Below are positions 263 through 32,795 of a stretch of DNA of 32,795 nucleotides, one piece after another. Made by a program: the position numbers and the translations under genes. The notes below the pieces were generated by a model. It was given only the letters and a program-made list of their open reading frames with translations, did not search any database and had not been told where the DNA came from. Source of the stretch: Bacteroidales bacterium (GTDB lineage: Bacteria; Bacteroidota; Bacteroidia; Bacteroidales; JAADGE01); NCBI GenBank assembly GCA_029934265.1, contig JAOZMN010000001.1, positions 1 to 32,795 on the forward strand, written 5' to 3'. Within the stretch, counting starts at the first letter, position 1. Every line of letters starts with the position of its first letter.

Positions 263-393
263 AAGACCGGTATAAAAGGGTAATTTCCGGCAATCAGACC
301 CTTAGGGTTTGAAGTAAACAAATGTAAATAAGACATTTACATTTGTTGGTTTTTGTTAAATTAAACCCTAAGGGTCTTTTTTACACTGAACTC
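263..393 (+). mobile_element. Family A 131-bp MITE-like palindromic element, copy 1 (left terminus degenerate)
   Basis: Inner inverted repeat AGACCCTTAGGGTTT...AAACCCTAAGGGTCT and right terminus CTGAACTC. Flanked by ATATAA / ATACAA (5/6 match). The central 13-bp hairpin AACAAATGTAAAT / ATTTACATTTGTT is perfect. Confidence 0.8.
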
Positions 394-430
394 ATACAAT
401 TTTCATTCAATTATTCATTCAGTCATTTAA

Positions 431-1243
431 CTACTCAACAATAATTTCTTTTTCCGAGACATTGCAAACAGCAAAAAATCCCAAAGCACCTTCCGACATA
501 TTAGTCGGCGGATTACCTTTTTCGGTATCGAAAAGACCACCGTTCCATGTGGTTTCGGATAACACGGCTCTTATATATTTCGCATAAGCCGGACTGAGCG
601 AATATTTTCGGATTTTCAGTTTTGTTCCTTTGGTAAAAAACACTTGCTCTCTTCTTGCCGGAAATAATTGGTTAGTATCCACAGTACCAAGCACATAATA
701 ATACAATAAAGCAGTAGGAATGTTTTCGGAAGAATTTTCCGGCGTAACAGTAATTTGATACATGGCATTTTCTGATTCCGAGTAATTTACATTGCTTGTG
801 TTTATATAATACAACTCACCGTTTTCTTCTTTTTTAATTTCGATTTCCATTTTCGAGACCAAAGGCACGGCTACGGCTTGTGCTGTGTAATTTTTTTCTT
901 TATATTCTATCGAAATTGTAAAATTTCTGTTCAAAACGGCGGAAAATTTCCTTTCGGATATATATTCACCGGCTTTATATTTATTTTCAAAAAAAGGGAA
1001 ACGTTCTATTCCATTAGAAACATACACAACAGCACCCTGAATTACTCTCGGATTTTGGTCTGGCAAAATTTTAGATGCGGTAAGATAAATTTTTTGATTT
1101 TTCAGTTCGTTTGTTATCATTGCTTCCACCACAATTTTTTCCTCTACGGCGGAAGTATCATATATCCATTTAATTTCTTTTTCACAAGAAGTTAAAAATA
1201 AAAATATTATAAAAATACAAAATATTATTTTACTGAATTTCAT
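431..1243 (-). CDS. DUF4249-family lipoprotein (partner of the upstream TonB-dependent receptor)
   Basis: Lipoprotein signal MKFSKIIFCIFIIFLFLTSC. Its position directly after a CarboxypepD_reg-type TonB receptor is the usual DUF4249 context. I chose the ATG at 1243 over the TTG at 1261, because 1244-1261 is repeat-B sequence. Confidence 0.55.
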   Translation of the reverse strand: MKFSKIIFCIFIIFLFLTSCEKEIKWIYDTSAVEEKIVVEAMITNELKNQKIYLTASKILPDQNPRVIQGAVVYVSNGIERFPFFENKYKAGEYISERKFSAVLNRNFTISIEYKEKNYTAQAVAVPLVSKMEIEIKKEENGELYYINTSNVNYSESENAMYQITVTPENSSENIPTALLYYYVLGTVDTNQLFPARREQVFFTKGTKLKIRKYSLSPAYAKYIRAVLSETTWNGGLFDTEKGNPPTNMSEGALGFFAVCNVSEKEIIVE

Positions 1244-1351
1244 AATTAAGTACCCTTGCAAAAGTTATTACACATTTACTTATTTTTAATAGGTTAATTT
1301 ACAGGCATTTGCACAAATGAATGGGCAACATTAAACAGGTCGAAGACCTTA
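1244..1351 (-). repeat. Family B intercistronic element, copy B1
   Basis: On the minus strand it reads TAAGGTCTTCGACCTGTTTAATGTTGC...GTGCAAAT...AATAAGTAAATGTGTAATAACTTTTGCAAGGGTACTTAATT followed by ATG. It fills exactly the gap from the receptor stop codon to the DUF4249 start codon. Confidence 0.7.
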
Positions 1352-4054
1352 TCTGAAATTTATCTTATAGGAAACTGCCGGCACAATTCCGGTAAACGAA
1401 GTTCCGGTTGTAATATATTCATGTTCTGAAATATAATTTACCGGCACGTTAAAACCGCTTCCGTTTTCGGCTTTATTGAAATTTACCGAAACAATATTAT
1501 TACGATTAAAAACATTCACTACCGAAAAAGATAAAACTTGTTTCAAACGAGCTTTTTTATTTTTATTTATTCGCCATTCTGCTGAAACATCTGTTGTGTA
1601 ATATGCCGGCAAACGACTGTTATTACGATTGTTATAAATAGGAATAAGGTATCCGTTATAATCATAAAATTCGTCCGGAGTTGTAATCCGAAAACCTGAC
1701 ATATACACACTCGAAACATTTATCGAAATTCGTTTTGTGATATTATATGATAATACGATATTAAAATTATGAGGAATATCGTAGCGAGCCGGATATTCTT
1801 CCGAATTATTTATGCCCTCTATTTTCATAAAAGCCCTCATGTAAGAATACGAAGCTCTAAATTTAAAATTTCCTTTATTTTTTTCGATATAAAATTCCGC
1901 TCCATAAGATTTTGAATTACCGAAACGCAAATCGTTTTCCAAATTCGGATTCAGCATAATATTTGCATGATTTATAAAATCGAAAACATTTTCCGTTTTT
2001 TTGTAATATGCTTCCAATCCGTATGATATTTCTATACCTTTATACGTTAAGCCCGACGTTGTCTGATACGCATTTTCAGCTTTGATATTTTTCCCGGCAG
2101 GCAACCAAATTTCCATAGAAGTCAGCGGAGTAATCGAATTATTTATCATGTGCAAAAACTGCATATTTTTATCTGCCGAAATTAACAAAAATAGTTTCGG
2201 AATAATAGCATAATTCATTGAAAATCGGGCTTCTATGGCATTTTGAGAGTGGAATTTTTCTTTTTCGTAAATTTCTTTTGTAACACTTCCGGGAATATCA
2301 AAATTAGAGACTTCCGCATAACCATAATTCCCTCTGTTTATTAACCTTATACCGTAATTTAACGAAATTTTATTTGAAATTTTATATTTTTCACCGATAT
2401 ATCCTACCGTTTCGAATACGTTTCCCGGTATTACTGAATAATCATTCCCGAAATTACTTAAAACACCCGGTTTGAAAGTAAAAAATCCAAATGAAATGCC
2501 AAAATTCAATTTGTGTTTTTCGGACAAATAATATGTTAAATCTTCTTTAAGATTGTAATTATTGATATTTGAATTCCAAAAAATATCATAAGTTTTGGAG
2601 TAATGTAAAAAATAGTTGTACAGACTTCCGGAAGTGGTGAAATTTGAAAATATTTTATCGGAAAATTGTTTATTTATACGAAAAGAAAAAGCTGTATTTT
2701 TCCATTCCAAACCTGTTTCCGGGTTGGGCAACAATTTATCTTCACCTCTGTAAAACGAAAAATAATATTGACTTTTTCGTAAAGTTTTAAAGGTAAATTT
2801 TGTATGAAAATCAAAAAAACCAATGTCATAATCACCTTTATGTAAGATATTTAGATGTGATTTACGAAGAGTTGATGAAAATATAAGTTTATTTTTTATT
2901 ATCGGACCGTCAATAGAATAAGTGCCTGTAAAAGGACTCAGCAACACACCGCCGCCGATTTTTTCGGAATGTCCTTTTTTGGTTTGAATATCTGTAATCG
3001 AGGCAGTAACACCACCGGTTTTTATGGGGAAAGACGTTTTATAAAAAGTCATTTTATTGACAGATTCCGGTGCTATGGAAGATATAAAGCCAAGCAGATG
3101 CGAGGGCATAAAAACAGGAGCCTCGTCCAGCAAAATAAGATTATTTGTTTTGTCGCCTCCTCTTACAAAAAAAGAGGCAGCACCTCCGCCAAAAGCTCGA
3201 ACTCCCGGAGTGCTCGACACCGTTTTCAAAACATCATCTTCACCGGCAACGGTTTTGTTTCCGGCAATTTCGGAAGAATTTATTACAACATCTTGCAAAT
3301 TTCCTGAAATCAGCGTATTATCTTGGTCTTTTTCCGTTACTACAATTACATTAAGCTCTGTATTTTTTTCGGTAAGTTTTTCGCTTAAATTAATATTTTT
3401 ATTCAGACAAATATTTCTGAAAATGGAACTGAAACCAATATAAGAATATCGTATTTGATAGGTTCCTTCCGGTAATTTCAATGAAAAAAAACCGTAATTA
3501 TTTGTCGCTACACCTTTGCCGGTACCAACAACGGAAACTATTGCTCCTATAAGTACATTTTCATCATAAGCATCTTTTACATAGCCACTTATCGTAAAAT
3601 ATTTTGAATTATCTCCGGAGGAAGCTTTGTTTTTGCAAATATTCGGTTTGGGAGTAAGAACAATATATTTATCGGTTTGAATATAACTTATATTCAGCTC
3701 GTTAAATAAAATATCAAGTGTTTGATACAAATTTTTATTTCTTACGACAAAACTTATTTTTTGTTCGAGATTTATTTTCTTTTTGCTGTATGAAAAGGAT
3801 ATGGAAGTTTTTTTTTCGATTAATTTAAGTACGTTTTCTAAACTTTTATTTTTTACGTTTATCGAAATTTTATTTTCCGGATTTTTGGTTTGTGCAAATA
3901 TTTTTTGATTAGATAAAATTATAACAAAACTTAATAAACAAATAGTAATGAATATATTAAGTAATTGATTATTTTTGATTGCAGATTTATGATTTTGCTT
4001 TCGCTTGATTAATAAAGTTTTTACAAATATTATAGATACAAATAATTTTGTCAT
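1349..4054 (-). CDS. TonB-dependent receptor with STN and CarboxypepD_reg-like N-terminal domains (FecR-regulated type)
   Basis: 901 aa. It has a signal-peptide-like ...LSFVIILSNQKIFA/QT, an STN-like ISINVKNKSLENVLKLIEKKTSISFSYS, and a carboxypeptidase-regulatory-like ISGYVKDAYDENVLIGAIVSVVGTGKGVATNNYGFFSLKLPEGTYQIRYSYIGF. A long beta-rich barrel region follows. A FecR gene lies upstream and a DUF4249 gene downstream. Confidence 0.85.
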   Translation of the reverse strand: MTKLFVSIIFVKTLLIKRKQNHKSAIKNNQLLNIFITICLLSFVIILSNQKIFAQTKNPENKISINVKNKSLENVLKLIEKKTSISFSYSKKKINLEQKISFVVRNKNLYQTLDILFNELNISYIQTDKYIVLTPKPNICKNKASSGDNSKYFTISGYVKDAYDENVLIGAIVSVVGTGKGVATNNYGFFSLKLPEGTYQIRYSYIGFSSIFRNICLNKNINLSEKLTEKNTELNVIVVTEKDQDNTLISGNLQDVVINSSEIAGNKTVAGEDDVLKTVSSTPGVRAFGGGAASFFVRGGDKTNNLILLDEAPVFMPSHLLGFISSIAPESVNKMTFYKTSFPIKTGGVTASITDIQTKKGHSEKIGGGVLLSPFTGTYSIDGPIIKNKLIFSSTLRKSHLNILHKGDYDIGFFDFHTKFTFKTLRKSQYYFSFYRGEDKLLPNPETGLEWKNTAFSFRINKQFSDKIFSNFTTSGSLYNYFLHYSKTYDIFWNSNINNYNLKEDLTYYLSEKHKLNFGISFGFFTFKPGVLSNFGNDYSVIPGNVFETVGYIGEKYKISNKISLNYGIRLINRGNYGYAEVSNFDIPGSVTKEIYEKEKFHSQNAIEARFSMNYAIIPKLFLLISADKNMQFLHMINNSITPLTSMEIWLPAGKNIKAENAYQTTSGLTYKGIEISYGLEAYYKKTENVFDFINHANIMLNPNLENDLRFGNSKSYGAEFYIEKNKGNFKFRASYSYMRAFMKIEGINNSEEYPARYDIPHNFNIVLSYNITKRISINVSSVYMSGFRITTPDEFYDYNGYLIPIYNNRNNSRLPAYYTTDVSAEWRINKNKKARLKQVLSFSVVNVFNRNNIVSVNFNKAENGSGFNVPVNYISEHEYITTGTSFTGIVPAVSYKINFR
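3976..4023 (+). repeat. Family C 48-bp repeat, copy C1 (inside the 5' coding end of the TonB receptor gene)
   Basis: TGATTGCAGATTTATGATTTTGCTTTCGCTTGATTAATAAAGTTTTTA is about 44/48 identical to 23812-23859. On the minus strand it encodes about residues 12-27 (KTLLIKRKQNHKSAIK) of the receptor ORF. Confidence 0.7.
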
Positions 4055-4097
4055 GGTACTTTATACGTTTCATCAAAGAAAGTTTGTTATTTTGTCG

Positions 4098-4161
4098 GCT
4101 CAAACTTGCCGAAAGAAGAGTTAAAACCTATTAAACAAATTCTTCTTCCGACGGTTTGAGC
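4098..4161 (-). promoter_or_regulatory. Long imperfect stem-loop between the FecR stop and the TonB-receptor start
   Basis: GCTCAAACTTGCCGAAAGAAGA (4098-4119) pairs with TCTTCTTCCGACGGTTTGAGC (4141-4161). The stem is about 20 bp with a few mismatches around a ~21-nt loop. Confidence 0.4.
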
Positions 4162-4169
4162 TAATATAA

Positions 4170-5126: not shown

Positions 5127-5177
5127 TATTTTTTTATCTGTATAATTGTTACACCTATTTATATATATACCCTTATT

Positions 5178-6158: not shown

Positions 6159-6178
6159 TTTTGTGATTTGTTATTTAT

Positions 6179-6309
6179 GAGTTCAGTCTAAAAAGTAGAT
6201 TTTCTCGAAATCAGACCCTTAGGTTTTTAAGTAACAATCTACAAATCAAACATTTAGATTTGTTAAATTTTGTTAAGTCAAACCCTAAGGGTCTTTTTAT
6301 ACCGAACTC
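6179..6309 (+). mobile_element. Family A MITE-like element, copy 2
   Basis: Exactly 131 bp, from GAGTTCAGTCTAAAAAG to CTTTTTATACCGAACTC. A perfect 6-bp direct repeat ATTTAT lies at 6173-6178 and 6310-6315. Confidence 0.9.
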
Positions 6310-6342
6310 ATTTATTATTGAAGATTTTTTATAATCATAAAT

Positions 6343-6473
6343 GAGTCCGGTCTAAAAAGTATATCTCTTCGCAATCAGACCCTTAGGGTTTTAAGTAATA
6401 TACTATAAATTAGATATTTAGGTTCTTTAAATTTTGTTAAATCAAACCCTAAGGGTCTTTTTATACCGAACTC
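6343..6473 (+). mobile_element. Family A MITE-like element, copy 3
   Basis: Exactly 131 bp. A perfect 6-bp direct repeat ATAAAT lies at 6337-6342 and 6474-6479. It sits 33 bp from copy 2. Confidence 0.9.
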
Positions 6474-6478
6474 ATAAA

Positions 6479-8053
6479 TCAAATAAGTTTTCCTTTTTCG
6501 GGATAATCTATATTATAATGCAGTCCTCTGCTTTCTTTTCTTTTTGCAGCCATTTCGATTATCAGATATGCGACATTAATGGCATTGCGAAGGCGACAAA
6601 TTTTAAATGAAACTTTAGATTTATTATACTGTTTTTCGGTTTCTCGGTTTAAAATTTCAAGTCGAGACATCGCTCTTTTTAAACGCAAATTAGAACGAAC
6701 AATTCCCACATAATTAGACATTATTTGTTGTAACTCTTTAAATTCTTGAGTTATAAGTATCATTTCTTCCAAATCGTTTGTCCCTTCGTCGTTCCAATTA
6801 GGTATTTCATTATTGATTTTTATTTTACCGATTTTTTTGGCGGAAATTTTTGCCGAAATATTTGCATATACAACAGCTTCGAGTAATGAATTGGACGCAA
6901 GACGATTAGCACCATGCAAACCGGTAGCGGCAACCTCTCCGCCGGCATACAGATTTTTAATGGAAGTTCGACCTTTTTTATTAACTTTTATCCCTCCGCA
7001 GAGGTAATGTGCAGCAGGAACAACAGGAATATAATCTTTTGTAATGTCAATACCTGTTTCAAGACATTTTTTGTAAATATTCGGAAAATGTCCCTCTAAA
7101 TCTTCTTTACTTATATTTGTACAATCCAAATAAACGTATTCCGAACCGGAAATTTTCATTTCGTTATCTATCGCTCTGGCAACAATATCACGAGATGCAA
7201 GTTCTTTGCGAACATCATATTTTTGCATGAAACATTTTCCGTCGAAAGTAAGCAACTTTGCACCGAAACCTCTTATGGCTTCCGTAATAAGAAACGAAGG
7301 ACGTTCTTTTAAATTGTACAAAGCCGTTGGGTGAAATTGTACAAATTCCATATTTTCAATAATGCCTTTTGCCCTGTAAACCATAGCAATACCGTCGCCG
7401 GTAGCAATTTCCGGATTCGTGGTGGTATGATAAATATTTCCTATTCCGCCGGTGGCAATATAAGTAATTTTTGAAAGGATTGTATCAATTTCATTGGTCT
7501 TATTATTAAGGACATAAGCACCGTAACATTCAATTTTTGTTTTTTCTCTAATCACTGCATATCCCATTTGATGTTGTGTCAATAGGTCTATTGCAAAATG
7601 ATTTTCCAATATTTCAATATTCGGACAGCTTTTAATTTTTTCGACAAGTGCTCTTTGTATTTCAAATCCGGTCTTATCTTTATAATGTAATATTCTGTTT
7701 TCTGAATGCCCACCCTCTTTGGCAAGGTCAAAATCACCATCAGGTTTTGTGTCGAATTTAGTACCGTATTCTATCAATTTTTCCACCATTTCTCGACCTT
7801 CAGAAACAACCATTTCGACAACGTCTTTATTACAAAGTCCATCGCCGGCTTTCAGCGTGTCTTCTATGTGTTTCTTTTTTGAATCCGGTTTGTATGTTAC
7901 GGTTGCGATACCGCCCTGTGCATAATTTGTGTTGGTGTCGTCTATTTTTGATTTTGTAACCAAACACACTTTCCCGAATTTTGCAACTTTCAGTGCATAC
8001 ATCAAGCCGGCAATTCCGGAACCTATTACAAGAAAATCAGTTTCTTTACTCAT
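6479..8053 (-). CDS. nadB: L-aspartate oxidase
   Basis: 524 aa. FAD-binding N-terminus DFLVIGSGIAGL, then ...YAQGGIA..., HPTAL, RxxxGLHGANRLASNSLLE, which is the fumarate-reductase/NadB family pattern. nadC is nearby. Confidence 0.9.
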   Translation of the reverse strand: MSKETDFLVIGSGIAGLMYALKVAKFGKVCLVTKSKIDDTNTNYAQGGIATVTYKPDSKKKHIEDTLKAGDGLCNKDVVEMVVSEGREMVEKLIEYGTKFDTKPDGDFDLAKEGGHSENRILHYKDKTGFEIQRALVEKIKSCPNIEILENHFAIDLLTQHQMGYAVIREKTKIECYGAYVLNNKTNEIDTILSKITYIATGGIGNIYHTTTNPEIATGDGIAMVYRAKGIIENMEFVQFHPTALYNLKERPSFLITEAIRGFGAKLLTFDGKCFMQKYDVRKELASRDIVARAIDNEMKISGSEYVYLDCTNISKEDLEGHFPNIYKKCLETGIDITKDYIPVVPAAHYLCGGIKVNKKGRTSIKNLYAGGEVAATGLHGANRLASNSLLEAVVYANISAKISAKKIGKIKINNEIPNWNDEGTNDLEEMILITQEFKELQQIMSNYVGIVRSNLRLKRAMSRLEILNRETEKQYNKSKVSFKICRLRNAINVAYLIIEMAAKRKESRGLHYNIDYPEKGKLI

Positions 8054-9287: not shown

Positions 9288-9339
9288 AGTCTGCAAGCTA
9301 TTTAACAAGGCGTACGCATTTGCGTAAAAACTTTTGTAT

Positions 9340-9470
9340 GAGTTCAGTCTAAAAAGTATATTTCTTCGCAATCAGACCCTTAGGGTTTTAAGTAAAATGC
9401 TGTAAATTAAATATTTAGATTTGTTAATTTTTGTTAAATCAAACCCTAAGGGTCTTTTTAGACCGAACTC
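9340..9470 (+). mobile_element. Family A MITE-like element, copy 4
   Basis: Exactly 131 bp. A perfect 6-bp direct repeat TTGTAT lies at 9334-9339 and 9471-9476. Confidence 0.9.
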
Positions 9471-9495
9471 TTGTATAGGTACTTAAAATTTACTT

Positions 9496-11527: not shown

Positions 11528-12184
11528 ATGAATAAAACTATAATTTCCCCCTCGTTACTTTCCGGTGATTTTGGAAATTTGCAAGCTGACTGCCAAAAAA
11601 TAAATAAAAGTAATGCCGATTGGTTTCATCTTGACATAATGGACGGCGTATTTGTCCCTAATATTTCTTTCGGCTTACCGGTAGTTTCGGCAATAAAAAA
11701 ACACGCCGAAAAACCATTGGACGTACACCTTATGATTGTCGAGCCGGACAGATATGTAGAGGGATTCAAAAAAGCCGGAGCCGATTATCTTACTGTTCAT
11801 TATGAGGCTTGTACGCACTTGCACCGAACTTTGCAACTGATAAAATCTTTCGGAATGAAAGCCGGAGTTTCTCTAAATCCGCACACGCCGATTTCTTTGC
11901 TCGAAGATATTATTGTTGATATAGATTTGGTATTGCTGATGTCTGTAAATCCCGGTTTCGGCGGACAAAAGTTTATAAAAGAAACTTATGATAAAATTAA
12001 AAAACTGAAAAAACTTATTACCGAAAAAAATACAAATACAATTATCGAAATAGATGGCGGCGTAAACGATAAAAATGCAAAAAAACTTACAGAAGCAGGT
12101 GCAGATGCTCTCGTTGCGGGAAATTATATTTTCAAACACGAAAATTTTAACGAAGCCGTAAATTCACTTAAGAGTTCAGTGTAA
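11528..12184 (+). CDS. rpe: Ribulose-phosphate 3-epimerase (last three codons and stop lie in MITE copy 5)
   Basis: 218 aa. ISPSLLSGDF, HLDIMDGVFVPNISFG, DVHLM, MSVNPGFGGQKF, EIDGG. The stop TAA at 12182-12184 lies inside the repeat that starts at 12172. Confidence 0.9.
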   Translation: MNKTIISPSLLSGDFGNLQADCQKINKSNADWFHLDIMDGVFVPNISFGLPVVSAIKKHAEKPLDVHLMIVEPDRYVEGFKKAGADYLTVHYEACTHLHRTLQLIKSFGMKAGVSLNPHTPISLLEDIIVDIDLVLLMSVNPGFGGQKFIKETYDKIKKLKKLITEKNTNTIIEIDGGVNDKNAKKLTEAGADALVAGNYIFKHENFNEAVNSLKSSV

Positions 12185-12302
12185 AAAGTATATTTTTCCA
12201 AAATCAGACCCTTAGGGTTTTAAGTAATAAGCTGTAATTCAGATATTTAGATTTGTTAATTTTTGTTAAATCAAACCCTAAGGGTCTTTTTATACCGAAC
12301 TC
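12172..12302 (+). mobile_element. Family A MITE-like element, copy 5 (inserted into the 3' end of rpe)
   Basis: Exactly 131 bp. A perfect 6-bp direct repeat ACTTAA lies at 12166-12171 and 12303-12308. Confidence 0.9.
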
Positions 12303-12321
12303 ACTTAAATTTTAAACAATT

Positions 12322-18337: not shown

Positions 18338-18556
18338 TTTTTCTGCAAAGATAAAAATAACAATGAATAAAATGAATATCTTTTAAAATTTATGTATAAT
18401 TATTCAAAAAATATATAAATACATGGTTGGCTTATTTATAACTTCACAACCTAACAGACTGTAATCACTGACAAATAATAAAATTATCACAACACCGACA
18501 CTATGTATAATTATACAGTCATTTTACCTGTATCAAAAAAATATTATACTTTGTAT

Positions 18557-18687
18557 GAGTTCAGTCTAAAAAGTAGATTTTCTCGAAATCAGACCCTTAG
18601 GGTTTTAAGTAATAAGCTATAAATCAAATATTTAGATTTGTTAAATTTTATTAAATCAAACCCTAAGGGTCTTTTTATACCGAACTC
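18557..18687 (+). mobile_element. Family A MITE-like element, copy 6
   Basis: Exactly 131 bp. A perfect 6-bp direct repeat TTGTAT lies at 18551-18556 and 18688-18693. Confidence 0.9.
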
Positions 18688-19112
18688 TTGTATTAAATTT
18701 CAATACAATCCTATGAAAACAAAATCACAAATCGACAGTCAAAAATAGCAAATCACTTGTACTGATTTATTATTTTTCAATAAATCTACAAATCTAAATA
18801 TGTTGTATAATATGTTTATTTATTTCAATATTATAAAACGCTAAATTACAGCACATAGGAACGTAAGCATTAGACCCAAATCACGAATTATGACTCAAAT
18901 CATTAAAAGATGTGCTATAGAACACACATCTATATTTTTAAATATTCTATTTTTGTGAAATAGTATTGCAAATTAGAGTCTGATATATAAATATTTATAT
19001 ATTTAGTTTTTTTACCTTAAAATATGTCAAAAATCTTAATTACGGAAGTTGCAATATTAAATGTGTAAAAGTATTATAAAAAGGTCAGTTAAGCCAAATT
19101 AATAATGATAAG

Positions 19113-21362
19113 ATGAAAACCAACAGACGAGAATTTATTAAAATATCATCAATGGGAATGGGAGCTTTAGCCTTAGCAACAACACCTGTTCTTGGTTGGG
19201 TACCCGGTTTTTTAAAAGATGACTACACAAATCCGGACGATTCAAAAGCAAAGCGTTATGCAAACTATTGTGAAGTATGCTTTTGGAATTGTGCAGGTTG
19301 GGTATATACCGATGAAAAAGATAAAATTTGGAAAATAATCGGTAACGAAGACGACCCTCACAGCAACGGACGTTTTTGCCCTCGAGGAACCGGCGGAGTG
19401 GGAATGTATAACGACAACGACCGACTTAAAACTCCGCTTAAACGTGTAACAGACGAATCCGGCAAACAAACTTTCGTTAAAATTTCTTGGGAAGAAGCAT
19501 TTGATACCATTGCAGAAAAAATGACCGAAATTAAAGATAATTACGGTTCTGAAAGTTTTGCATTATTCAAACACGGTTCAAGCGGTAAACATTTTGCACA
19601 ACTATTAAAGGCTTACGGTTCCAAAAACATTGCAGCTCCGGCTTATGCTCAATGTAAAGGTCCCAGAGAAGAAGCATTTAAAGTTACATTCGGGCACCCG
19701 CTTCACTCACCCGAACCTCTCGACATCAGAGATACAAAATGTTTAGTACTTATAGGCTCTCATCTTGGCGAAAATATGCACAACGGACAAGTTCAAGAAA
19801 TGTCCGAAGCTATTGGGAAAGGTGTAAATATTATTACGGTTGACCCTCGTTTTTCAACTGTTGCAAGCAAATCTAAATTTTGGTTACCGATAAAACCGGC
19901 AACTGACCTTGCATTATTATTGGCTTGGATACACGTAATAATAAATGAAGAAATATACGACCAAAAATATGTCGAAAAATATACTTTCGGATTAGAATCG
20001 CTGAAAAAACACGTTGAAAATTACACTCCGGAATGGGCTGCGGGAATTACAACGCTTTCGGCACAAGACATAAGAGATACTGCCAAAGAAATGGCAAACG
20101 CTTCTCCGGCAGTAATAGTACATCCGGGACGACACGTTACTTGGTACGGAGATGACACCCAACGTTTGAGAGCCGTTGCAATACTTAACGCTTTACTTGG
20201 TTCGTGGGGACGAAGAGGCGGATTTTTCATGCCGGAAAAAGCAAAATTACCTAAATATCCCGAACCCAAAGCTCCAAAACCAAAATGGTCTTGGAGAGAC
20301 ATTTCTCCCGGTAAATATCCACTTGCAGGAACCGGTGTTACAAACTTATTAATAGACGCTTCGCACCCGGATTACGAAGGAGACCATAAAATAAAAGCAT
20401 GGTTTATAGCCGGAACAAATTTAATCGCAAGTATTCCGGATATAAAAAGAACACTTGATGCTCTTAATAATCAAGAATTTGTAGTAGTCGTAGATACAAT
20501 GCCGGCTGAAATAACCGGTTATGCAGATATAGTTCTGCCGGAATGTACATATCTTGAAAGATATGACAGTCCGAGACTTGCACAACACAGAGAGCCGAAT
20601 ATTGCTCTTCGAGTTCCTGCCGCCGAACCACGATTTGATTCAAAACCGGGCTGGTGGATATGCAAAGAAATTGCAACAAGAATAGGAAAAGGAGACTTTT
20701 TCGATTATAAAGACTTTTCGGAAGTTATCGACTGGCAACTCAAACAAGTAGGCACATCTCTTGAAGAGATGAAAAAAATCGGAGTTAAAAAATTAAACAG
20801 AAAATATGACGATTTATATTTCCTTGAAGATGAAGAAATAGAATTTCATACAAATACAGGAAAAATAGAATTGTATTCAACAACAATGGAAGCAAACGGT
20901 TTCGACCCGATGCCAAAATATACAGCACATCAAGAATCTTCGGAAGGATTTTACAGATTGATATACGGAAGGACGCCGGCTCATACTTTCAGCAGAACAA
21001 CCAACAACCCTAACTTAACAGCACTTAAAGCCGAAAACGATTTATGGGTAAATCCGAAAGTTGCATCGGAATGGGGTTTTAAAAACGGACAAAAACTTTG
21101 GTTACAAAATCATCAAGGTAAAGTTTCCGAGTTTCCGATAAAAATCAGAATAACCGAAAGAATACGTTGGGACTCAGTATTTACCGCTCACGGTTTCGGA
21201 CGAACCGACAAAAGACTCACAAGAGGATACGGGCGAGGAATAAGTGATTCGGAAATGGTATCCGATGTAAAAATAGATAAGGAAACAGGAAGTACGGGAA
21301 TGAGAAATAATTTTGTTACATTTCTGACAGAAAAACCGAATACAGCAAAAAAAGAAAGCTAA
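19113..21362 (+). CDS. Tat-exported molybdopterin oxidoreductase catalytic subunit, PsrA/PhsA (polysulfide/thiosulfate reductase)-like
   Basis: 749 aa. Twin-arginine signal NRREFIKISSMGMGALALA. N-terminal Fe-S motif CEVCFWNCAG...(x27)...CPRG. Bis-MGD family architecture. DmsB-type and NrfD-type subunits follow. Substrate is not determinable from sequence. Confidence 0.8.
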   Translation: MKTNRREFIKISSMGMGALALATTPVLGWVPGFLKDDYTNPDDSKAKRYANYCEVCFWNCAGWVYTDEKDKIWKIIGNEDDPHSNGRFCPRGTGGVGMYNDNDRLKTPLKRVTDESGKQTFVKISWEEAFDTIAEKMTEIKDNYGSESFALFKHGSSGKHFAQLLKAYGSKNIAAPAYAQCKGPREEAFKVTFGHPLHSPEPLDIRDTKCLVLIGSHLGENMHNGQVQEMSEAIGKGVNIITVDPRFSTVASKSKFWLPIKPATDLALLLAWIHVIINEEIYDQKYVEKYTFGLESLKKHVENYTPEWAAGITTLSAQDIRDTAKEMANASPAVIVHPGRHVTWYGDDTQRLRAVAILNALLGSWGRRGGFFMPEKAKLPKYPEPKAPKPKWSWRDISPGKYPLAGTGVTNLLIDASHPDYEGDHKIKAWFIAGTNLIASIPDIKRTLDALNNQEFVVVVDTMPAEITGYADIVLPECTYLERYDSPRLAQHREPNIALRVPAAEPRFDSKPGWWICKEIATRIGKGDFFDYKDFSEVIDWQLKQVGTSLEEMKKIGVKKLNRKYDDLYFLEDEEIEFHTNTGKIELYSTTMEANGFDPMPKYTAHQESSEGFYRLIYGRTPAHTFSRTTNNPNLTALKAENDLWVNPKVASEWGFKNGQKLWLQNHQGKVSEFPIKIRITERIRWDSVFTAHGFGRTDKRLTRGYGRGISDSEMVSDVKIDKETGSTGMRNNFVTFLTEKPNTAKKES

Positions 21363-21460
21363 GGTCTTCGACCTGTTTAATATTGCTTACACACTCGTGC
21401 AAATATTTATAAATAAGTAAATGTATATTTTTTTTGTAAGAGTACTTTTTCAAAAATTCC
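21360..21460 (+). repeat. Family B intercistronic element, copy B2
   Basis: It starts with the psrA-like stop codon: TAAGGTCTTCGACCTGTTTAATATTGC...GTGCAAAT...AATAAGTAAATGTATATTTTTTTTGTAAGAGTACTT. The first 27 nt are nearly identical to B1. Confidence 0.7.
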
Positions 21461-22135: not shown

Positions 22136-23155
22136 ATGAGAGAAGAATTAATAACAAGTGGCAGAATGAACTTGAATATCGACCCTGTTTTGCACATTTG
22201 GCACTGGCAAATCCCTGTATATTTATTTCTTGGCGGTCTTGCGGCAGGTTTACTTTTTTTTGCGGCATACTATACAATAATAGGAAAAGAAAAAAAATTC
22301 ACTACAGCCGTAAAATTTGCTCCGGTATTAGCTCCGGTAGCAATTATTCTCGGACTTATAGCACTTTTACTCGACCTTAAACACCCTGCGTATTTCTGGC
22401 AACTATATACAACAGTGCATTTAGAATCTCCGATGTCATGGGGTGCTTGGGTACTAATGTTTATAATGCCTATATCTATGTTGTGGGTAGCTTCTTATTT
22501 TAAAGAAATTTTCCCTAAATTCGATATAAACCAAAATATCGTAGGGAAAATGCTGAAAAAAGTAATCGTTAAAAATGACAATAAAGAAGGTGCAAACTGG
22601 GACTGGAAATTTGAAATTATACGAAAATTTGAAATTAATTTCATCAAAAACAGAAAACCGGTAGCATGGGTAATGCTTATTCTTGCAGTAATTCTCGGAG
22701 TTTATACCGGAATATTACTTTCGGCATTTAATGCACGACCGTTATGGAACTCTTCAATACTCGGACCATTATTTTTAACTTCCGGACTTTCAACTGCGGC
22801 GGCAACAATTATGTGGATGTCCGATAATCACGAAGAAAAACGTACTTTCAGCAAAATAGATTTAATGCTTATTGTAATTGAACTGTTTTTAATAACACAC
22901 TTATTTATGGGATTCTTAGCAGGTTCAGAAGCAAAAGTACAAGCCGCTCAATATTTTCTCGGAGGTGAATTTACCGTTACTTTTTGGATAAATGTTGTAA
23001 TTATCGGTTTGATAGTTCCTGCAATACTTGAAACACTTGAACTTTTAAAATTCAAATTACCGGTAATGGTACCTGCTGCAATGATATTATGGGGTGGCAT
23101 GATATTCCGCTTTATAATGGTAGAAGCCGGACAAGTAACTCGTTTTCTATATTAA
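22136..23155 (+). CDS. NrfD/PsrC-type integral-membrane quinol-interacting subunit
   Basis: 339 aa with about 8-9 hydrophobic helices. It has the WxWxIPxYLFLGG-like opening (WHWQIPVYLFLGGLAAG) typical of the NrfD family, and follows the A and B subunits. Confidence 0.8.
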   Translation: MREELITSGRMNLNIDPVLHIWHWQIPVYLFLGGLAAGLLFFAAYYTIIGKEKKFTTAVKFAPVLAPVAIILGLIALLLDLKHPAYFWQLYTTVHLESPMSWGAWVLMFIMPISMLWVASYFKEIFPKFDINQNIVGKMLKKVIVKNDNKEGANWDWKFEIIRKFEINFIKNRKPVAWVMLILAVILGVYTGILLSAFNARPLWNSSILGPLFLTSGLSTAAATIMWMSDNHEEKRTFSKIDLMLIVIELFLITHLFMGFLAGSEAKVQAAQYFLGGEFTVTFWINVVIIGLIVPAILETLELLKFKLPVMVPAAMILWGGMIFRFIMVEAGQVTRFLY

Positions 23156-23275
23156 GGTCTTTAACCTTTTTAATAAGGCAAAGCCATGTTTATAAATCAT
23201 TAATAATTAAAAAGTTACACAAGATATAATGTGTAAAGACTTTTATAAAGGTACTTAATTAAAAAAAATTAACCG
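23153..23275 (+). repeat. Family B intercistronic element, copy B3
   Basis: It starts with the psrC-like stop: TAAGGTCTTTAACCTTTTTAATAAGGCAAAGCC...AATGTGTAAAGACTTTTATAAAGGTACTTAATTA. It ends a few nt before the ATG at 23276. By eye it is roughly 80% identical to B4. Confidence 0.7.
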
Positions 23276-23794
23276 ATGGAAAATAAAAAAAAGTATATGA
23301 ATCCCTACCTTGCCGGTGTTTTACTGGGAATGTTAATTATAATTTCATTCATTTTAACTCGTGAAGGTTTGGGAGCGAGCGGTGCTTTTAAAAGAACTGC
23401 GGCAAAAATAGAACAAGCTGTAGCTCCCGGATATATCAACAATCCGGATACATATTTTCATAAATATGTCAAAAACGGGAAAGAGCCTTTAAACAACAGA
23501 TTAGTATTTATGATAATCGGCGTTTTTGTAGGGGGTTTTTTATCAGGTGCTGTTAACAGAAGACTGAAATTAAAAATTGAACATTCTCCTAAGATTACAA
23601 AAAAAACAAGAGGGATTGCTGCATTAATCGGCGGAATATTATTCGGAATAGGAGCATCGTTCGGTAGAGGTTGTACGAGCGGAGCCGGACTCGACGGAAT
23701 GGCTGTTATGGCAACTTCAGGTTTTATTGTAGTAGCGGCAATTTTCGGTGGAGGCTACTTATTTGCTTATTTTGTCAGGAAATTATGGATATAA
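23276..23794 (+). CDS. YeeE/YedE-family sulfur-transport membrane protein (half-size, first of pair)
   Basis: 172 aa and polytopic, with the conserved GRGCTSGAG motif of the sulphur-transport (YeeE/YedE) family. Confidence 0.7.
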   Translation: MENKKKYMNPYLAGVLLGMLIIISFILTREGLGASGAFKRTAAKIEQAVAPGYINNPDTYFHKYVKNGKEPLNNRLVFMIIGVFVGGFLSGAVNRRLKLKIEHSPKITKKTRGIAALIGGILFGIGASFGRGCTSGAGLDGMAVMATSGFIVVAAIFGGGYLFAYFVRKLWI

Positions 23795-23811
23795 AAGGGA
23801 TTGATGATTTG

Positions 23812-23859
23812 TGATTGTATATTTATGATTTTGCTTTCGCATGATTAATAAAATTTTTA
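23812..23859 (+). repeat. Family C 48-bp repeat, copy C2
   Basis: TGATTGTATATTTATGATTTTGCTTTCGCATGATTAATAAAATTTTTA is about 44/48 identical to C1. Confidence 0.7.
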
Positions 23860-23876
23860 CCGGCTAAGTCAGATTT

Positions 23877-23985
23877 TAAGGTCGTTGACCTTTTTAATAT
23901 GGCAAAGCCATATTAGAAAATCATTAATAATTAAAACGTTACACAAAGTACAATGTGGGAAAACTTTTGTAAGACTACTTACAAT
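23877..23985 (+). repeat. Family B element, copy B4 (not attached to a stop codon)
   Basis: TAAGGTCGTTGACCTTTTTAATATGGCAAAGCCATATTAG...CATTAATAATTAAAACGTTACACAAAGTACAATGTGGGAAAACTTTTGTAAGACTACTT. Confidence 0.65.
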
Positions 23986-24119: not shown

Positions 24120-24716
24120 ATGGGACCTTTTTTTACTTCAGGAGATGAATTCAGCTATGTTATAGCTTTAATAATAGGTATAGGTTTTGGTTTTGTACTC
24201 GAATCCGGAGGCTTTTCAACTTCAAAAAAACTTGCCGGAGTATTTTACGGATATGATTTTACCGTTATCAGAGTATTTTTTACGGCTGCCATAACAGCGG
24301 CTATAGGACTTTTTTACTTTGACTACCTCGGCTGGGTTGATTTCTCGGCATTGTATATAAATAAATTTTTTATCGGCTCAAGCATAGTAGGAGGTCTTAT
24401 AATGGGACTCGGGTTTGTTATCGGAGGATATTGTCCGGGGACAAGTGCTTGTGCGGTAGGCATAGGTAAAATTGATGCCATGATATACCTTGCCGGCGTG
24501 ATTATCGGAGCAATGATATTCGATTTATTTTATCCCCTTTACGGAAGTTTTTACAAAAGCGGGAATATGGGTGCATCTTCAATATACGAACTGCTCGGAA
24601 TGTCCAAAGAATTATTTTTATTGATTTTTGTAGTATTTGCCGCCGTTACTTTTTATTTTACGACCGGCTTACAGCATAAAATAACAAAAAAAATGAATAA
24701 AAAAAATGAGCAATGA
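24120..24716 (+). CDS. YeeE/YedE-family sulfur-transport membrane protein (second of pair)
   Basis: 198 aa and polytopic, with a GGYCPGTSAC motif at the position of the conserved Cys of the YeeE/YedE family. Confidence 0.65.
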   Translation: MGPFFTSGDEFSYVIALIIGIGFGFVLESGGFSTSKKLAGVFYGYDFTVIRVFFTAAITAAIGLFYFDYLGWVDFSALYINKFFIGSSIVGGLIMGLGFVIGGYCPGTSACAVGIGKIDAMIYLAGVIIGAMIFDLFYPLYGSFYKSGNMGASSIYELLGMSKELFLLIFVVFAAVTFYFTTGLQHKITKKMNKKNEQ

Positions 24717-26241: not shown

Positions 26242-26372
26242 GAGTTCGGTATAAAAAGACCCTTAGGGTTTGATTTAATAAAATTTAACGAATCTAAATA
26301 ATTGACTTACAGTCTTTTAATTAAAACCCTAAGGGTCTGATTGTGAAAAAATATACTTTTTAGACTGAACTC
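26242..26372 (-). mobile_element. Family A MITE-like element, copy 7 (inverted orientation)
   Basis: Exactly 131 bp. Flanking 6-mers ATATTT / ATTTTT match 5/6. Confidence 0.85.
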
Positions 26373-26379
26373 ATTTTTT

Positions 26380-26425
26380 TGATTGTGGATTTATGATTCT
26401 ACTTACTGTTGATTAAATTATAAAA
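26380..26425 (+). repeat. Family C repeat, copy C3 (diverged)
   Basis: TGATTGTGGATTTATGATTCTACTTACTGTTGATTAAATTATAAAA aligns with C1/C2. Confidence 0.5.
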
Positions 26426-26430
26426 TCTCG

Positions 26431-29506: not shown

Positions 29507-29515
29507 AATAATATT

Positions 29516-29905: not shown

Positions 29906-29971
29906 CATTTTTTATCATTTTTTAAATGAAAATTTACAATCTTTTAAATTTAACTTCGTTTCCTGAATATT

Positions 29972-31387
29972 GTGAACAAGAAACGTAAAAGATTAATATA
30001 CATAATATCCGATGCCCTCACGGCAACAACTGCTTGGGTACTGTTTTATATTTTCAGAAAAATATATATAGAATCCGGTGGCTACGGCTATAAAGTCCCA
30101 CTGATTTTCAATGAAAGTCTTAATATTGCTATATTTGCAATTCCCCTATTTTGGCTTAGCATATATTTTATTTCCGGATATTACCGAAATGTATATCGAA
30201 AATCCAGACTCAAAGAACTTTGGCTTACATTTTCCTCTTCACTCACCGGCTTGGTTATATTGTTTTTTGCATTAATTATCGACGATGTCGTTTTTTCGTA
30301 CAAACATTATTACGCATCGGCTTCTTTTCTTTTTATTTCACATTTTACACTTACATATATTTTTCGCTTGTGTATTACAACAAATAACATAAAAAAAATT
30401 CGCACAGGAAAAATAAGTTTTAATACCTTGATGATAGGCAGTAACGGCAAGGCTTTTAAATTATATAAAGATTTGATGTTCGGAAAAGATTATCAGGGGA
30501 ATAAATTTGTCGGTTTTATTAATATGAATAATAATCCCGAAGATATTTTATCCGAATACATTCCTCATTTGGGAAATTTCGATAACCTAAGAAGTATCGT
30601 TGAAGACAAAAAAATTGAAGAAGTTATTCTTGCAATAGAAAGTTCAAAACATGAAGATATTGAACAAATACTTTTCAAACTACAGGGTACAGATGTATTA
30701 ATCAAAGTATTACCAAGCTTGATAGACTTACTTACCGGACAAATAAGAATTTCAGGATTTATCGGACAGCCTTTAATGATAATATCTCACAGAATAATGC
30801 CCCCTATACAAGCCGTACTGAAAAAAATCATAGATATTTTACTTTCGGCAATCGCAATTATTTTGCTGTCTCCTTTTTTACCGATAATTTCAATTTTGAT
30901 AAAGCAAAGTTCAAAAGGCAGTATTTTTTTCAAACAAGAACGTATAGGAAAAAACGGCAAACCATTTATGATATACAAATTCAGGTCGATGATAATCGAA
31001 GCAGAAAGCGGTACACCCCAACTTTCATCGGAAGACGACAGCAGAATAACAAGTTTTGGAAAATTTATGCGAAAAACTCGAATTGATGAAATTCCTCAAT
31101 TTTTCAATGTTCTAAAAGGCGATATGTCGTTGGTAGGACCTCGCCCCGAACGACAATATTACATTGATAAAATTGTTCAAACTGCCCCTTATTATCTTCG
31201 CTTACTCAGAGTAAAACCCGGCATAACATCTTGGGGACAAGTAAAATACGGATATGCCGAAAATATAGAACAAATGTTGGAAAGATTAGATTACGATATT
31301 CTATATATCGAAAATATGTCTTTGTATTACGATTTTAAAATCGCAATTTATACTATAAAAACAATACTTAAAGGTTCAGGAAAATAA
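29972..31387 (+). CDS. Polyprenyl-phosphate glycosyl-1-phosphate transferase (WbaP/bacterial sugar transferase family)
   Basis: 471 aa. N-terminal TM helices. The C-terminal catalytic domain has KFRSM, DSRITSFGKFMRKTRIDEIPQFFNVLKGDMSLVGPRPE, KPGITSWGQV. GTG start. Confidence 0.85.
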   Translation: MNKKRKRLIYIISDALTATTAWVLFYIFRKIYIESGGYGYKVPLIFNESLNIAIFAIPLFWLSIYFISGYYRNVYRKSRLKELWLTFSSSLTGLVILFFALIIDDVVFSYKHYYASASFLFISHFTLTYIFRLCITTNNIKKIRTGKISFNTLMIGSNGKAFKLYKDLMFGKDYQGNKFVGFINMNNNPEDILSEYIPHLGNFDNLRSIVEDKKIEEVILAIESSKHEDIEQILFKLQGTDVLIKVLPSLIDLLTGQIRISGFIGQPLMIISHRIMPPIQAVLKKIIDILLSAIAIILLSPFLPIISILIKQSSKGSIFFKQERIGKNGKPFMIYKFRSMIIEAESGTPQLSSEDDSRITSFGKFMRKTRIDEIPQFFNVLKGDMSLVGPRPERQYYIDKIVQTAPYYLRLLRVKPGITSWGQVKYGYAENIEQMLERLDYDILYIENMSLYYDFKIAIYTIKTILKGSGK

Positions 31388-31388
31388 T

Positions 31389-31524
31389 AAGTTAAGTCTA
31401 AAAAGTAGATTTTCTCGAAATCAGACCCTTAGGGTTTTAAGTAACAATCTGCAAATCAAATATTTAGACTTGTTAAATTTTGTTAAATCAAACCCTAATG
31501 GTCTATTAAACTTAAATCGAACTC
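31389..31524 (+). mobile_element. Family A MITE-like element, copy 8 (degenerate, 136 bp; right end forms the 3' end of fcl)
   Basis: AAGTTAAGTCTAAAAAGTAGATTTTCTCGAAATCAGACCCTTAGGG...AAACCCTAATGGTCT...CGAACTC. There are point changes and a 5-nt indel relative to other copies, and no matching flanking 6-mers. Confidence 0.75.
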
Positions 31525-32630
31525 GCCTCTGTATAATTTCCGTAAACTTTGCTTAAACCGTCCTTTAACTCTGTTTTGTATTTCCAGCCGTACCGCTCCA
31601 ATTTACCGACATCTAACAATTTACGTAAAGTTCCGTCCGGCTTTGAACTGTCCCATACTATTTCACCGTCATAATTTACAATTTCGGTTTTAATCAATTC
31701 GGCAAGTTCTTTTATCGAAATATCTTTACCTGTACCTATATTTATATGAGTATTACGAATTTGCGTATCGGTTATCGGAAATTTAGGCTCTGTAATATTA
31801 TAATCCGATTTTAAAATATCACCGAAATCGAGTTTTTCCGTCAGATAAACGCAAGCATCGGCAAGGTCGTCGGAGTGTAGAAATTCTCTCTTCGGTTTTC
31901 CGGTTCCCCATAAGGTAATTCTATCTTCAAAGATACCGTATTTATTAAGAATTTTTATTATTTCCGACCTTTCGAAATTACCGGTAATTCCTTGTATAGG
32001 ATTTTTATTCAAATCTTTTCTTACAGCCTCAAAATCATTTGAAATAAGGCATTTACCAATGTGCATCTTTCTGATTAAAGCCGGCAAAACGTGCGATTTT
32101 TCAAGGTCGAAATTATCATTTTTACCGTACAAATTTGTCGGCATTACCGATAAAAAATTTGTACCGTACTGAATATTAAAACTTTCAATAGTTCTTATTC
32201 CCGCAATTTTCGCAATAGCATAAGGTTCGTTAGTATATTCCAAAACATCGGTAAGCAAATGATGTTCCTGCATAGGTTGCGGACAATTTTTGGAATAAAT
32301 ACAAGAACTTCCCAAAAAAAGCAATTTCTTAACTTTATTTTTATGACATTGTCCGATTATATTATTCTGAATTTGTAAATTATCAATAATAAATTCGGCT
32401 CTGTAATTATTATTTGCAATAATTCCTCCCACTTTTGCCGCAGCAAGAAAAACATACTCAGGTTTATTTTTCTTAAAGAAATCCTCAACCTGTTTACTGT
32501 CTCTCAAATCACATTCCGAAAAAGACGCATAAATAATATTTTCGTAACCTTTGGATTGTAAATTTCGCATGATGGCACTTCCAACCAAACCGGTATGCCC
32601 CGCAATGTATATTTTTGAATTTTTATTCAT
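31512..32630 (-). CDS. fcl: GDP-L-fucose synthase (GDP-4-keto-6-deoxy-D-mannose 3,5-epimerase/4-reductase)
   Basis: 372 aa. IYIAGHTGLVGSA, LAAAKVGGI, YAIAKI (YxxxK), PTNLYG, which is the short-chain dehydrogenase Fcl pattern. The last codons (..ASSI-stop) lie in MITE copy 8. Confidence 0.85.
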   Translation of the reverse strand: MNKNSKIYIAGHTGLVGSAIMRNLQSKGYENIIYASFSECDLRDSKQVEDFFKKNKPEYVFLAAAKVGGIIANNNYRAEFIIDNLQIQNNIIGQCHKNKVKKLLFLGSSCIYSKNCPQPMQEHHLLTDVLEYTNEPYAIAKIAGIRTIESFNIQYGTNFLSVMPTNLYGKNDNFDLEKSHVLPALIRKMHIGKCLISNDFEAVRKDLNKNPIQGITGNFERSEIIKILNKYGIFEDRITLWGTGKPKREFLHSDDLADACVYLTEKLDFGDILKSDYNITEPKFPITDTQIRNTHINIGTGKDISIKELAELIKTEIVNYDGEIVWDSSKPDGTLRKLLDVGKLERYGWKYKTELKDGLSKVYGNYTEASSI

Positions 32631-32745
32631 AAATTAAAGTTTTTATAAAAGAACCGATAAGTTCTCCAAAAAAAGCAAATTTAAAAATAATAAATGATTT
32701 TAAAATATTTTTATTTATCAGACCCTTCATAAAAAAATAAATAAA

Positions 32746-32795
32746 GAGTTCGGTCTAAAAAGACCCTTAGGGTTTGATTTAACAAAAATTAACAA
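32746..32795 (-). mobile_element. Family A MITE-like element, copy 9 (inverted, truncated by the window end)
   Basis: GAGTTCGGTCTAAAAAGACCCTTAGGGTTTGATTTAACAAAAATTAACAA matches the right arm of the family read in reverse. Confidence 0.8.

Follow-up and report, generated by a model that had tools for sequence, protein, structure and literature searches.

What is the 131-bp imperfectly palindromic sequence that recurs nine times within a single contig of 32,795 bp, how did it spread there, and which enzyme could have moved it? The contig (JAOZMN010000001.1 of the GenBank assembly GCA_029934265.1) comes from a bacterium of the order Bacteroidales; it was analyzed over its complete length, which we call the window. 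A sequence-only reading of this DNA had taken the repeat for a transposable element of the miniature inverted-repeat kind (MITE) and not for a structural repeat of the repetitive extragenic palindromic (REP) type. Our data lead to the same view, on the grounds of variable target-site duplications, unrelated flanks, termini resembling those of insertion sequences (ISs) and the existence of other small elements that share these termini only. The element is a new MITE family, non-autonomous and spread by transposition, in an uncultured lineage of Bacteroidota. Taken as a whole, the explanation that we retain, namely a MITE moved in trans, probably by a DDE transposase similar to those of cluster II of the IS982 family, appears highly probable.

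Nine copies of the element, named c1 to c9 (Table 1), were found by repeat detection, MAFFT alignment and an nhmmer profile of the eight full copies, which were matched with E-values of 1e-33 to 7e-41. These are the very copies that had been located from the letters alone, and seven of them measure exactly 131 bp, as had been read. Copy c9 stops at the end of the contig, as is typical where an assembly breaks in a repeat. The density thus amounts to 9 copies in 32.8 kb, that is one per 3.6 kb.

The architecture proposed earlier, with inverted termini, a segment present in the left arm only, an inner inverted repeat and a variable center, also holds in our alignment, the left segment being 17 nt long. 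Copies c2 to c7 carry at both ends the 17-bp inverted terminus GAGTTCRGTNTAAAAAG, whose consensus is GAGTTC(A/G)GT(C/A/G)TAAAAAG. With at most three mismatches allowed, the terminus pattern GAGTTCRGTMTAAAAAG occurs 15 times, against 0.77 occurrences expected from shuffled sequences. Among c2 to c7, hardly any column varies in the termini (3/17 and 1/17) or in the inner arms (1/15 and 0/15), variable columns being concentrated in the spacer (7/17) and in the center (11/26). Pairwise identity ranges from 85.5 to 94.7% within this group, and c1 is 76-80% identical to it. Copy c1 has a decayed left terminus, an intact inner hairpin and a perfect central hairpin of 13 bp. We also observed that the terminus variants of c1 (263-279 and 377-393) are swapped with respect to the other copies while its interior is oriented as in them: its spacer end bears the G-type GGTAT variant and its opposite end the A-type AGTG variant. 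Copy c1 therefore represents a separate subfamily and not a decayed copy of the main one.

The element does not encode its own transposase, the longest open frame through it being of 43 codons. The earlier statement that the window holds no transposase is borne out by Pfam scans of its 28 open reading frames (ORFs), which revealed neither a transposase nor any Y1 or RAYT-like protein, and a tblastn search of the window with seven IS982-family transposases gave nothing significant.

The mode of spread can be read from the flanks. Five copies (c2 to c6) are bordered by perfect 6-bp direct repeats, the flanks of c1 and c7 agree at five of six positions and the duplication of c8 is gone; the five perfect and two near-perfect repeats previously described were recovered with identical hexamers. 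The chance of a 6/6 match at such a spacing in the window is 0.0012, so that five perfect repeats out of eight correspond to P ~1e-13. The duplications directly abut the inverted termini, and the target hexamers are AT-rich and roughly symmetric (ATNNAT-like). As these hexamers differ from copy to copy and are direct, not inverted, they cannot be a hidden extension of the element; within the window, they are not part of a longer conserved unit. The flanks of the copies are unique and mutually unrelated and a further copy lies on another contig (see below), which does not fit a local segmental duplication. Since the 6-bp duplications are of varied sequence, the element spread by staggered-cut DDE transposition. 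It thus combines small size (131 bp, bacterial MITEs being of about 50-1000 bp), lack of coding capacity, terminal inverted repeats, 6-bp target-site duplications and dispersed copies in unrelated contexts, as is characteristic of MITEs. Which transposase acts, that transposition is or was active and how many copies the genome holds are what we infer.

Table 1. Copies of the 131-bp element in the window (c1 to c9) and component parts of copy c6. TSD, target-site duplication.
Feature	Coordinates	Strand	Remarks
Copy c1	263-393	+	131 bp; divergent subfamily; flanks ATATAA/ATACAA match 5/6
Copy c2	6179-6309	+	131 bp; TSD ATTTAT at 6173-6178 and 6310-6315
Copy c3	6343-6473	+	131 bp; 33 bp downstream of c2; TSD ATAAAT at 6337-6342 and 6474-6479
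Copy c4	9340-9470	+	131 bp; between groES-like and folK-like genes; TSD TTGTAT at 9334-9339 and 9471-9476
Copy c5	12172-12302	+	131 bp; in last rpe codons; TSD ACTTAA at 12166-12171 and 12303-12308
Copy c6	18557-18687	+	131 bp; nearest to consensus; divergent promoter region; TSD TTGTAT at 18551-18556 and 18688-18693
Copy c7	26242-26372	-	131 bp; inverted; flanks AAAAAT/AAATAT match 5/6
Copy c8	31389-31524	+	136 bp; degenerate; both termini mutated; 5-nt insertion near right end; TSD lost
Copy c9	32746-32795	-	Inverted; first 50 nt only, cut by contig end
c6 left terminal inverted repeat GAGTTCAGTCTAAAAAG	18557-18573	+	'A at position 7' type; spacer-bearing end
c6 left-arm-only 17-nt segment	18574-18590	+	Variable; bulge or side hairpin in fold
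c6 inner inverted repeat, 5' arm AGACCCTTAGGGTTT	18591-18605	+	
c6 center, 52 nt	18606-18657	+	Left half variable; right half conserved ATTTAGATTTGTTAAATTTTRTTAAATC, includes TAGATTTG
c6 inner inverted repeat, 3' arm AAACCCTAAGGGTCT	18658-18672	+	Runs into T5 of right terminus
c6 right terminal inverted repeat GAGTTCGGTATAAAAAG (read inward)	18671-18687	-	'G at position 7' type

A simple scheme could account for this organization. A transposase would first bind the 17-bp inverted termini GAGTTCRGTNTAAAAAG, then insert the element into AT-rich hexamers of roughly ATNNAT sequence by means of cuts staggered by 6 bp which, after repair, would yield the 6-bp direct repeats. Copies would build up in intergenic spacers and occasionally replace the terminal codons of a gene, and the long-hairpin shape of the element would be a by-product of its imperfectly palindromic nature.

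Which part of the element would such a transposase recognize? We scanned a metagenome collection for stretches of 116-146 bp lying between two termini with a free interior, the pattern being enforced over 15 bases on each side. This search yielded nine elements of 116-142 bp on eight contigs with a GC content of 28-47%. Two of these contigs (L032 and L033) encode type IX secretion system sorting domains and are therefore from Bacteroidota. In their interiors, these sister elements bear no relation to the window family and can be sorted into at least four groups; a single one (L028) shows a faint overall similarity to the window family (nhmmer E 9e-9). Positions 16-17 (AG), which were outside the enforced pattern, are mostly conserved too, and several sister elements show the same succession of terminus, one-sided spacer and long inner stem abutting a T-run as the window family. 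In three families, an A is found at position 7 of the spacer-bearing end and a G in the other end, an asymmetry that is expected of deletion derivatives from one type of IS with slightly different left and right ends. Common termini around free interiors typically indicate that it is the termini which a transposase recognizes. No transposase was found among the genes beside the sister MITEs, and neither these loci nor the window hold one of the IS982 type (PF13612/PF01609). The nearest relative carries a non-coding element of 519 bp (L026, 15517-16035, on a contig of 'Bacteroidetes bacterium 4572_117'; also L027). Its ends are degenerate forms of the shared termini (GAGCCTAGTCTAAAAAAG ... CTTTTCAGACTGGACTC), its 6-bp duplication, ATTAAT, is perfect, and it probably belongs to the shared-termini group as a longer, decayed member. 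A candidate transposase remnant in this element, a 24-residue match to the 'DIHYLK' region of ISRa1 (E 0.39), was rejected, the family profile scoring no better than on 200 shuffles.

The terminus itself points to a known group of ISs. In Porphyromonas gingivalis, ACGT-GAGTTCGATATAAAGG is the end both of MITE239 and of ISPg3 (= IS195), the helper of this MITE (PMC4596501). IS195 is registered in the IS982 family (PMC7335449), in which the inverted repeats of cluster II share AC(C/G)T-GAGTTCG(G/A)..TAA (PMC7335449 Fig. S1). This is the case of ISLbp3 (ACGT-GAGTTCGGCCTAAGGAG, in full ACGTGAGTTCGGCCTAAGGAG), of IS1592 (ACCT-GAGTTCGGGATAAG, in full ACCTGAGTTCGGGATAAG) and of ISCca4 from the Bacteroidota member Cardinium (direct repeat of 6 bp; ACGT-GAGTTCGATTAGAC, in full ACGTGAGTTCGATTAGAC) (PMC7335449 Fig. 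S1). Cluster-II members are common in Bacteroidota, target duplications in the IS982 family range from 2 to 10 bp, with 6 bp recorded for ISCca4, ISCaa5, ISAba6 and ISAlw20, and 5'-AC ends are a hallmark of the family, being found in 57 of 69 registered members (PMC7335449).

We then analyzed five cluster-II copies taken from plasmid records, together with 31 loci on viral contigs that were detected with a transposase profile (loci L039-L074), among which the ends could be defined in 21 autonomous copies (5 from plasmid records, 16 from viral contigs). The four Bacteroidota plasmid-record copies are from Persicobacter, Phocaeicola, Adhaeribacter and B. finegoldii, and the Persicobacter end reads ACCT-GAGTTCGGTTTATATAA. 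Aligned in the same register, the core of the window terminus is identical to cluster-II ends at 14/17 (ISLbp3) to 16/17 positions, the closest end found being that of locus L061 (ACCT-GAGTTCGATATAAAAAAAG), compared with GAGTTCGGTATAAAAAG. The duplications made by these copies are of 5-8 bp in AT-rich targets, 6 and 7 bp being the commonest lengths, and the 6-bp duplication of our element falls inside the IS982-family range. The ends of ISLll1, IS1187 and ISRa1, from other IS982 subgroups, are unrelated to it, which restricts the resemblance to cluster II; a protein search that started from IS1187 retrieved its close relatives only. As the core of the inverted repeat is the same sequence, the likeliest helper would be a DDE transposase in or near IS982 cluster II (IS195/ISPg3, ISCca4, IS1592, ISLbp3). 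An IS982-like helper is, on balance, what the comparison of ends suggests as probable, to a modest degree.

Two further observations were made on the cluster-II copies. All 21 with definable ends have TA on both flanks, and their duplications follow TA-N(1-4)-TA, with TATTTA found three times besides TAAATTA, TAGGATA and TAATATTA. In the ISLbp3-like locus L062, the inverted repeat may extend 8 nt past the registered 'AC' end, or else the 8-bp duplication is palindromic.

The parallel with MITE239 and MITE700 of P. gingivalis deserves to be detailed. These elements and ours are non-coding, have inverted termini and reside in Bacteroidales hosts, and the terminus core GAGTTCG-R-TATAAA is common to MITE239 (ACGT-GAGTTCGATATAAAGGAA) and to the window element. 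However, they are longer, at 239 bp (MITE239) and about 720 bp (MITE700) against 131 bp here, their interiors are unrelated to ours, they possess the outer ACGT tip, they are present in 5-14 copies per genome, against nine in 33 kb for the window element, and their helper IS is known from the same genome, whereas that of the window element was not found. Similarly, cluster-II members (IS1592, ISLbp3, ISCca4, IS195 and the Persicobacter, Phocaeicola and viral-contig copies) share with our element the core GAGTTCG(G/A)..TAA in the same register and AT-rich, roughly symmetric targets, but they are about 1 kb long, encode a DDE transposase, start with AC(C/G)T 4 nt outside the end of the window element and use TA..TA instead of AT..AT targets.

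Several observations weigh against our reading, most of them against the IS982 part of it. The outer 4-nt tip AC(C/G)T, present in all 21 autonomous copies as well as in the published ends, is absent from the window element, from the nine metagenome elements and from the 519-bp element, in which the target-site duplications directly abut GAGTTC; none of them thus begins with the 5'-AC of the IS982 family. An explanation by four arbitrary flanking bases that would travel with the element was rejected, since the flanks differ by copy and form direct 6-bp repeats. The search for an autonomous IS with matching termini, which the earlier reading had proposed, gave no element starting at GAGTTC among the 21 copies with definable ends. 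Neither the helper IS nor any exact match to the 30-nt right end of our element was found in 185,579 GTDB representative genomes or in 241 million metagenome records of the Joint Genome Institute (JGI). The unrelated ends of ISLll1, IS1187 and ISRa1 also count here. The copies differ by 5-15%, so their activity may be old, and the nearest relative, with 79% CarB identity, offers no synteny with the window in which an empty site could be sought.

One could therefore ask whether the MITE is mobilized by a transposase foreign to the IS982 family, with ends that start at GAGTTC and a duplication always of 6 bp, its likeness to cluster II resulting from distant ancestry or convergence. The missing tip would be readily understood, as would the uniformly 6-bp duplications, against 5-8 bp in cluster II, and the AT..AT targets, against TA..TA; moreover, no IS982 remnant was found in any of the MITE-bearing loci. 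On the other hand, the same-register match GAGTTCG-R-NN-TAA-R, with 14-16 of 17 positions identical to several cluster-II ends, is too long for chance, and ISCca4, ISCaa5, ISAba6 and ISAlw20 show that a 6-bp duplication is not foreign to the family. We consider this alternative unlikely, albeit the most serious of those examined.

A more tentative proposal would reconcile the IS982-like core with the missing tip. The window family, at least four sister families and the 519-bp element could form a 'tipless' superfamily, served either by an IS982-related lineage that cuts 4 nt inward or by transposases that tolerate the loss of the tip, and the window family, in view of its extreme density and of the inner hairpin kept in decayed copies, could in addition have been co-opted as hairpins or terminators. 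It is possible, but we would not regard this combined proposal as the probable one.

Could the copies be kept by the host for what they do to its transcripts? Under such a hypothesis, the host would have put them to use as structured intergenic elements, such as terminators, hairpins that stabilize RNA or outward promoters, and selection would keep the inner hairpin. Each strand of the element is indeed predicted to fold as one long hairpin (-35 to -44 kcal/mol as RNA, z -5.4 to -8.3) in which the termini are paired, the spacer is bulged and the inner repeat forms a 15-bp stem, followed by U5 in the plus orientation. In addition, both inner arms are unchanged in c1, despite its overall divergence, and only one change is found in c8, and 26% of the intergenic DNA (1,103/4,311 bases) consists of these elements. 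The sequence-only reading had suggested that copies may double as terminators: the hairpin followed by a T-run is real, but a terminator role finds no support, since three copies are oriented in the sense of the incoming transcripts (hairpin then T-run), four are antisense and one lies between divergent genes. This lack of orientation preference means that there is no sign of selection for such a role. The truncated c9 has no upstream gene within the contig. Furthermore, the 8-copy alignment contains no compensatory change in the 28 pairs of the two conserved stems; the pairs are either invariant or broken, and covariation is therefore uninformative. As to the central hairpin, whose G/C pair of changes in c1 had been proposed as a hint of structural selection, it is perfect in c1 only (13 bp, z -3.6), moderate in c2 and at the level of shuffled sequences in c3, c4, c5 and c7. 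We therefore took it for a peculiarity of one divergent copy, not for a conserved structure, and rejected it as a selected one. The conservation of the termini and inner repeat can be equally explained by the copying of intact elements only.

Two observations touch on the same hypothesis. The first one concerns the octamer TAGATTTG, located at 18632-18639 in c6, at the same place in c2, c4 and c5 and replaced by TACATTTG in c1. It faces the right end and fits TAnnTTTG, the -7 promoter motif of Bacteroidota; a matching -33 TTTG at the usual distance is absent from most copies. From its sequence, TAGATTTG is a possible outward promoter. The second one is that the 19-mer AAACCCTAAGGGTCTTTTT, made of the inner arm and the T-run (e.g. 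18658-18676), recurs in GTDB genomes from unrelated phyla (loci L012-L024). Its hosts, among the matches listed, include Anaerolineae (at least four loci in one metagenome-assembled genome, MAG), Chloroflexia, Rikenellaceae and another Bacteroidota MAG, and at most of the listed loci the two arms form a perfect hairpin with a short loop, AGACCCTTAGGGTTT-nnnn-AAACCCTAAGGGTCT, and Ts come next, which is the shape of a plain terminator. They were thus discarded as further copies of the element, although the recurrence of the stem in plain terminator-like hairpins of other phyla speaks for the co-option hypothesis. Altogether, we regard co-option as quite unlikely to be the explanation of the family.

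The position of the copies illustrates how they may affect genes. Every copy is intergenic or clips the 3' end of a gene, mostly at 1-52 nt from a gene end. In rpe, the last residues and the stop now come from copy c5, and the product of the gene ends in ..NSLKSSV. Removing c5 and one hexamer in silico restores an ORF that ends in ..NSLKF; the unoccupied rpe 3' end would read ...TTCACTTAA-ATTTTAAAC, with a single copy of the hexamer. Likewise, the right end of c8 overlaps by 13 nt the 3' end of a minus-strand epimerase-like ORF (31512-32630). We observed that the terminus GAGTTCAGTSTAA encodes ..S-S-V/I-stop in one frame, and that the host-gene ends at 12166-12184 and 31512-31524 have been remade in this way.

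Finally, spread as a REP or bacterial interspersed mosaic element (BIME) by a REP-associated tyrosine transposase (RAYT, IS200/IS605-like), a segmental duplication or an assembly artefact is hardly conceivable: although REPs and BIMEs are likewise short, palindromic, abundant and intergenic and two of our copies lie only 33 bp apart, REPs are not known to make target-site duplications or to have DDE-type inverted termini, whereas the duplications found here (P ~1e-13) and their varied sequence exclude both REP/RAYT spread and segmental duplication, no RAYT or Y1 transposase is present in the window, the termini match a DDE IS family, and copies that differ by 5-25%, have unique flanks and recur on another contig are neither a duplication nor an artefact.

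Another likeness, by description, is offered by the Correia elements (Correia repeat enclosed elements, CREE) of Neisseria, which are also palindromic, about 100-155 bp long and densely scattered in intergenic regions, and which may affect the transcription of neighboring genes. They differ by 26-bp termini unrelated in sequence, by the duplication of a TA dinucleotide and by the phylum of their host.

How far does the family extend? It is new: it has no match in Rfam, in the literature searched, in GTDB representatives or in JGI metagenomes. More precisely, Rfam gave no match in the window at gathering thresholds, and a permissive search gave plant microRNA-hairpin matches only (18-26 bits, against thresholds of 72-95). 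The terminus strings had no match in a literature search, BLAST of one copy against plasmids retrieved AT-rich noise only, and no copy was found in the ~58 kb around carB on contigs of the three nearest relatives. A protein search with element-encoded peptides did reveal one further copy, on a different NCBI contig of 17,433 bp. The 32 C-terminal residues of a called 'protein' of 44 residues (P0241) correspond to a minus-strand frame of the element and are 94% identical to the query; its N-terminal part, encoded by the flank, is absent from the window, and the whole matches none of the window copies exactly. The family is therefore not confined to the host contig. As far as public data show, it appears to be lineage-specific. 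A single-terminus scan of viral contigs returned 11 matches, which we rejected: the profile matched none of them beyond the terminus, no credible second terminus was found within 4 kb, and the matches inspected (L001, L010 and L004) lie in or beside coding sequence and lack the features of the element.

As to the host, the window is a complete contig with a GC content of 29-40%. Pfam scans show a chromosomal gene set of Bacteroidota type, with a SusC-like TonB receptor (STN + CarboxypepD_reg), FecR and DUF4249 proteins as well as dus, nadB, groES, folK, nadC, rpe and carA/carB; a polysulfide-reductase-like operon, rhodanese genes and sugar transferases are also present, and no tRNA gene was found in the window. 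The best match of CarB, from MAGs of uncultured Bacteroidetes/Bacteroidales, is only 79% identical, so that the host has no close sequenced relative in the collections searched.

Three other repeats were observed in the window. The first one is an AT-rich intergenic sequence of ~66 nt (TTTTTGATTGyAgATTTATGATTTTGCTTTCGCwTGATTAATAAA) present in three copies, at 3959-4024, 23795-23860 and 26363-26428, the last two being 88% and 61% identical to the first; the third copy directly adjoins the MITE copy c7. The repeat is possibly a regulatory or promoter region common to these sites. The second one is a direct repeat of 109 nt (23149-23257 and 23873-23981, 83% identical). Its two units are each found upstream of a half-size Sulf_transp gene (23276-23794 and 24120-24716, adjacent to each other), which points to the duplication of a leader or regulatory region in a split sulfur-transporter pair. 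The third one is an inverted pair of 58 nt (1297-1354 and 21357-21414, 79% complementary) that includes the small hairpin AGGTCTTCGACCT; one arm closely follows the 3' end of the SusC-like gene, and the other lies at that of a molybdopterin oxidoreductase gene. The pair is possibly another small repeated element of terminator-like type.

Bacterial MITEs are familiar elements, but few are known to have been described in Bacteroidota outside Porphyromonas. As bacterial mobile DNA, the family found here is genuine but of a rather ordinary kind, and it stands out chiefly by its local density. Its interest rests on this density, on the group of elements that share its termini and on the puzzle of the 'tipless' ends, to which one can add that two copies rewrite the 3' ends of genes. 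If the density held genome-wide, the host would probably be among the most MITE-laden bacteria known, which would also explain why the assemblies of this lineage are fragmented. The 17-bp termini, found in otherwise unrelated small elements, provide a handle for annotating a whole non-autonomous group. The missing 'AC' tip raises the question of how IS982 transposases, which are poorly studied, recognize and cut their ends. If the 'tipless' superfamily were true, it would imply either an undescribed lineage of IS982-related transposases or a recognition of the core that tolerates the loss of the 'AC' tip.

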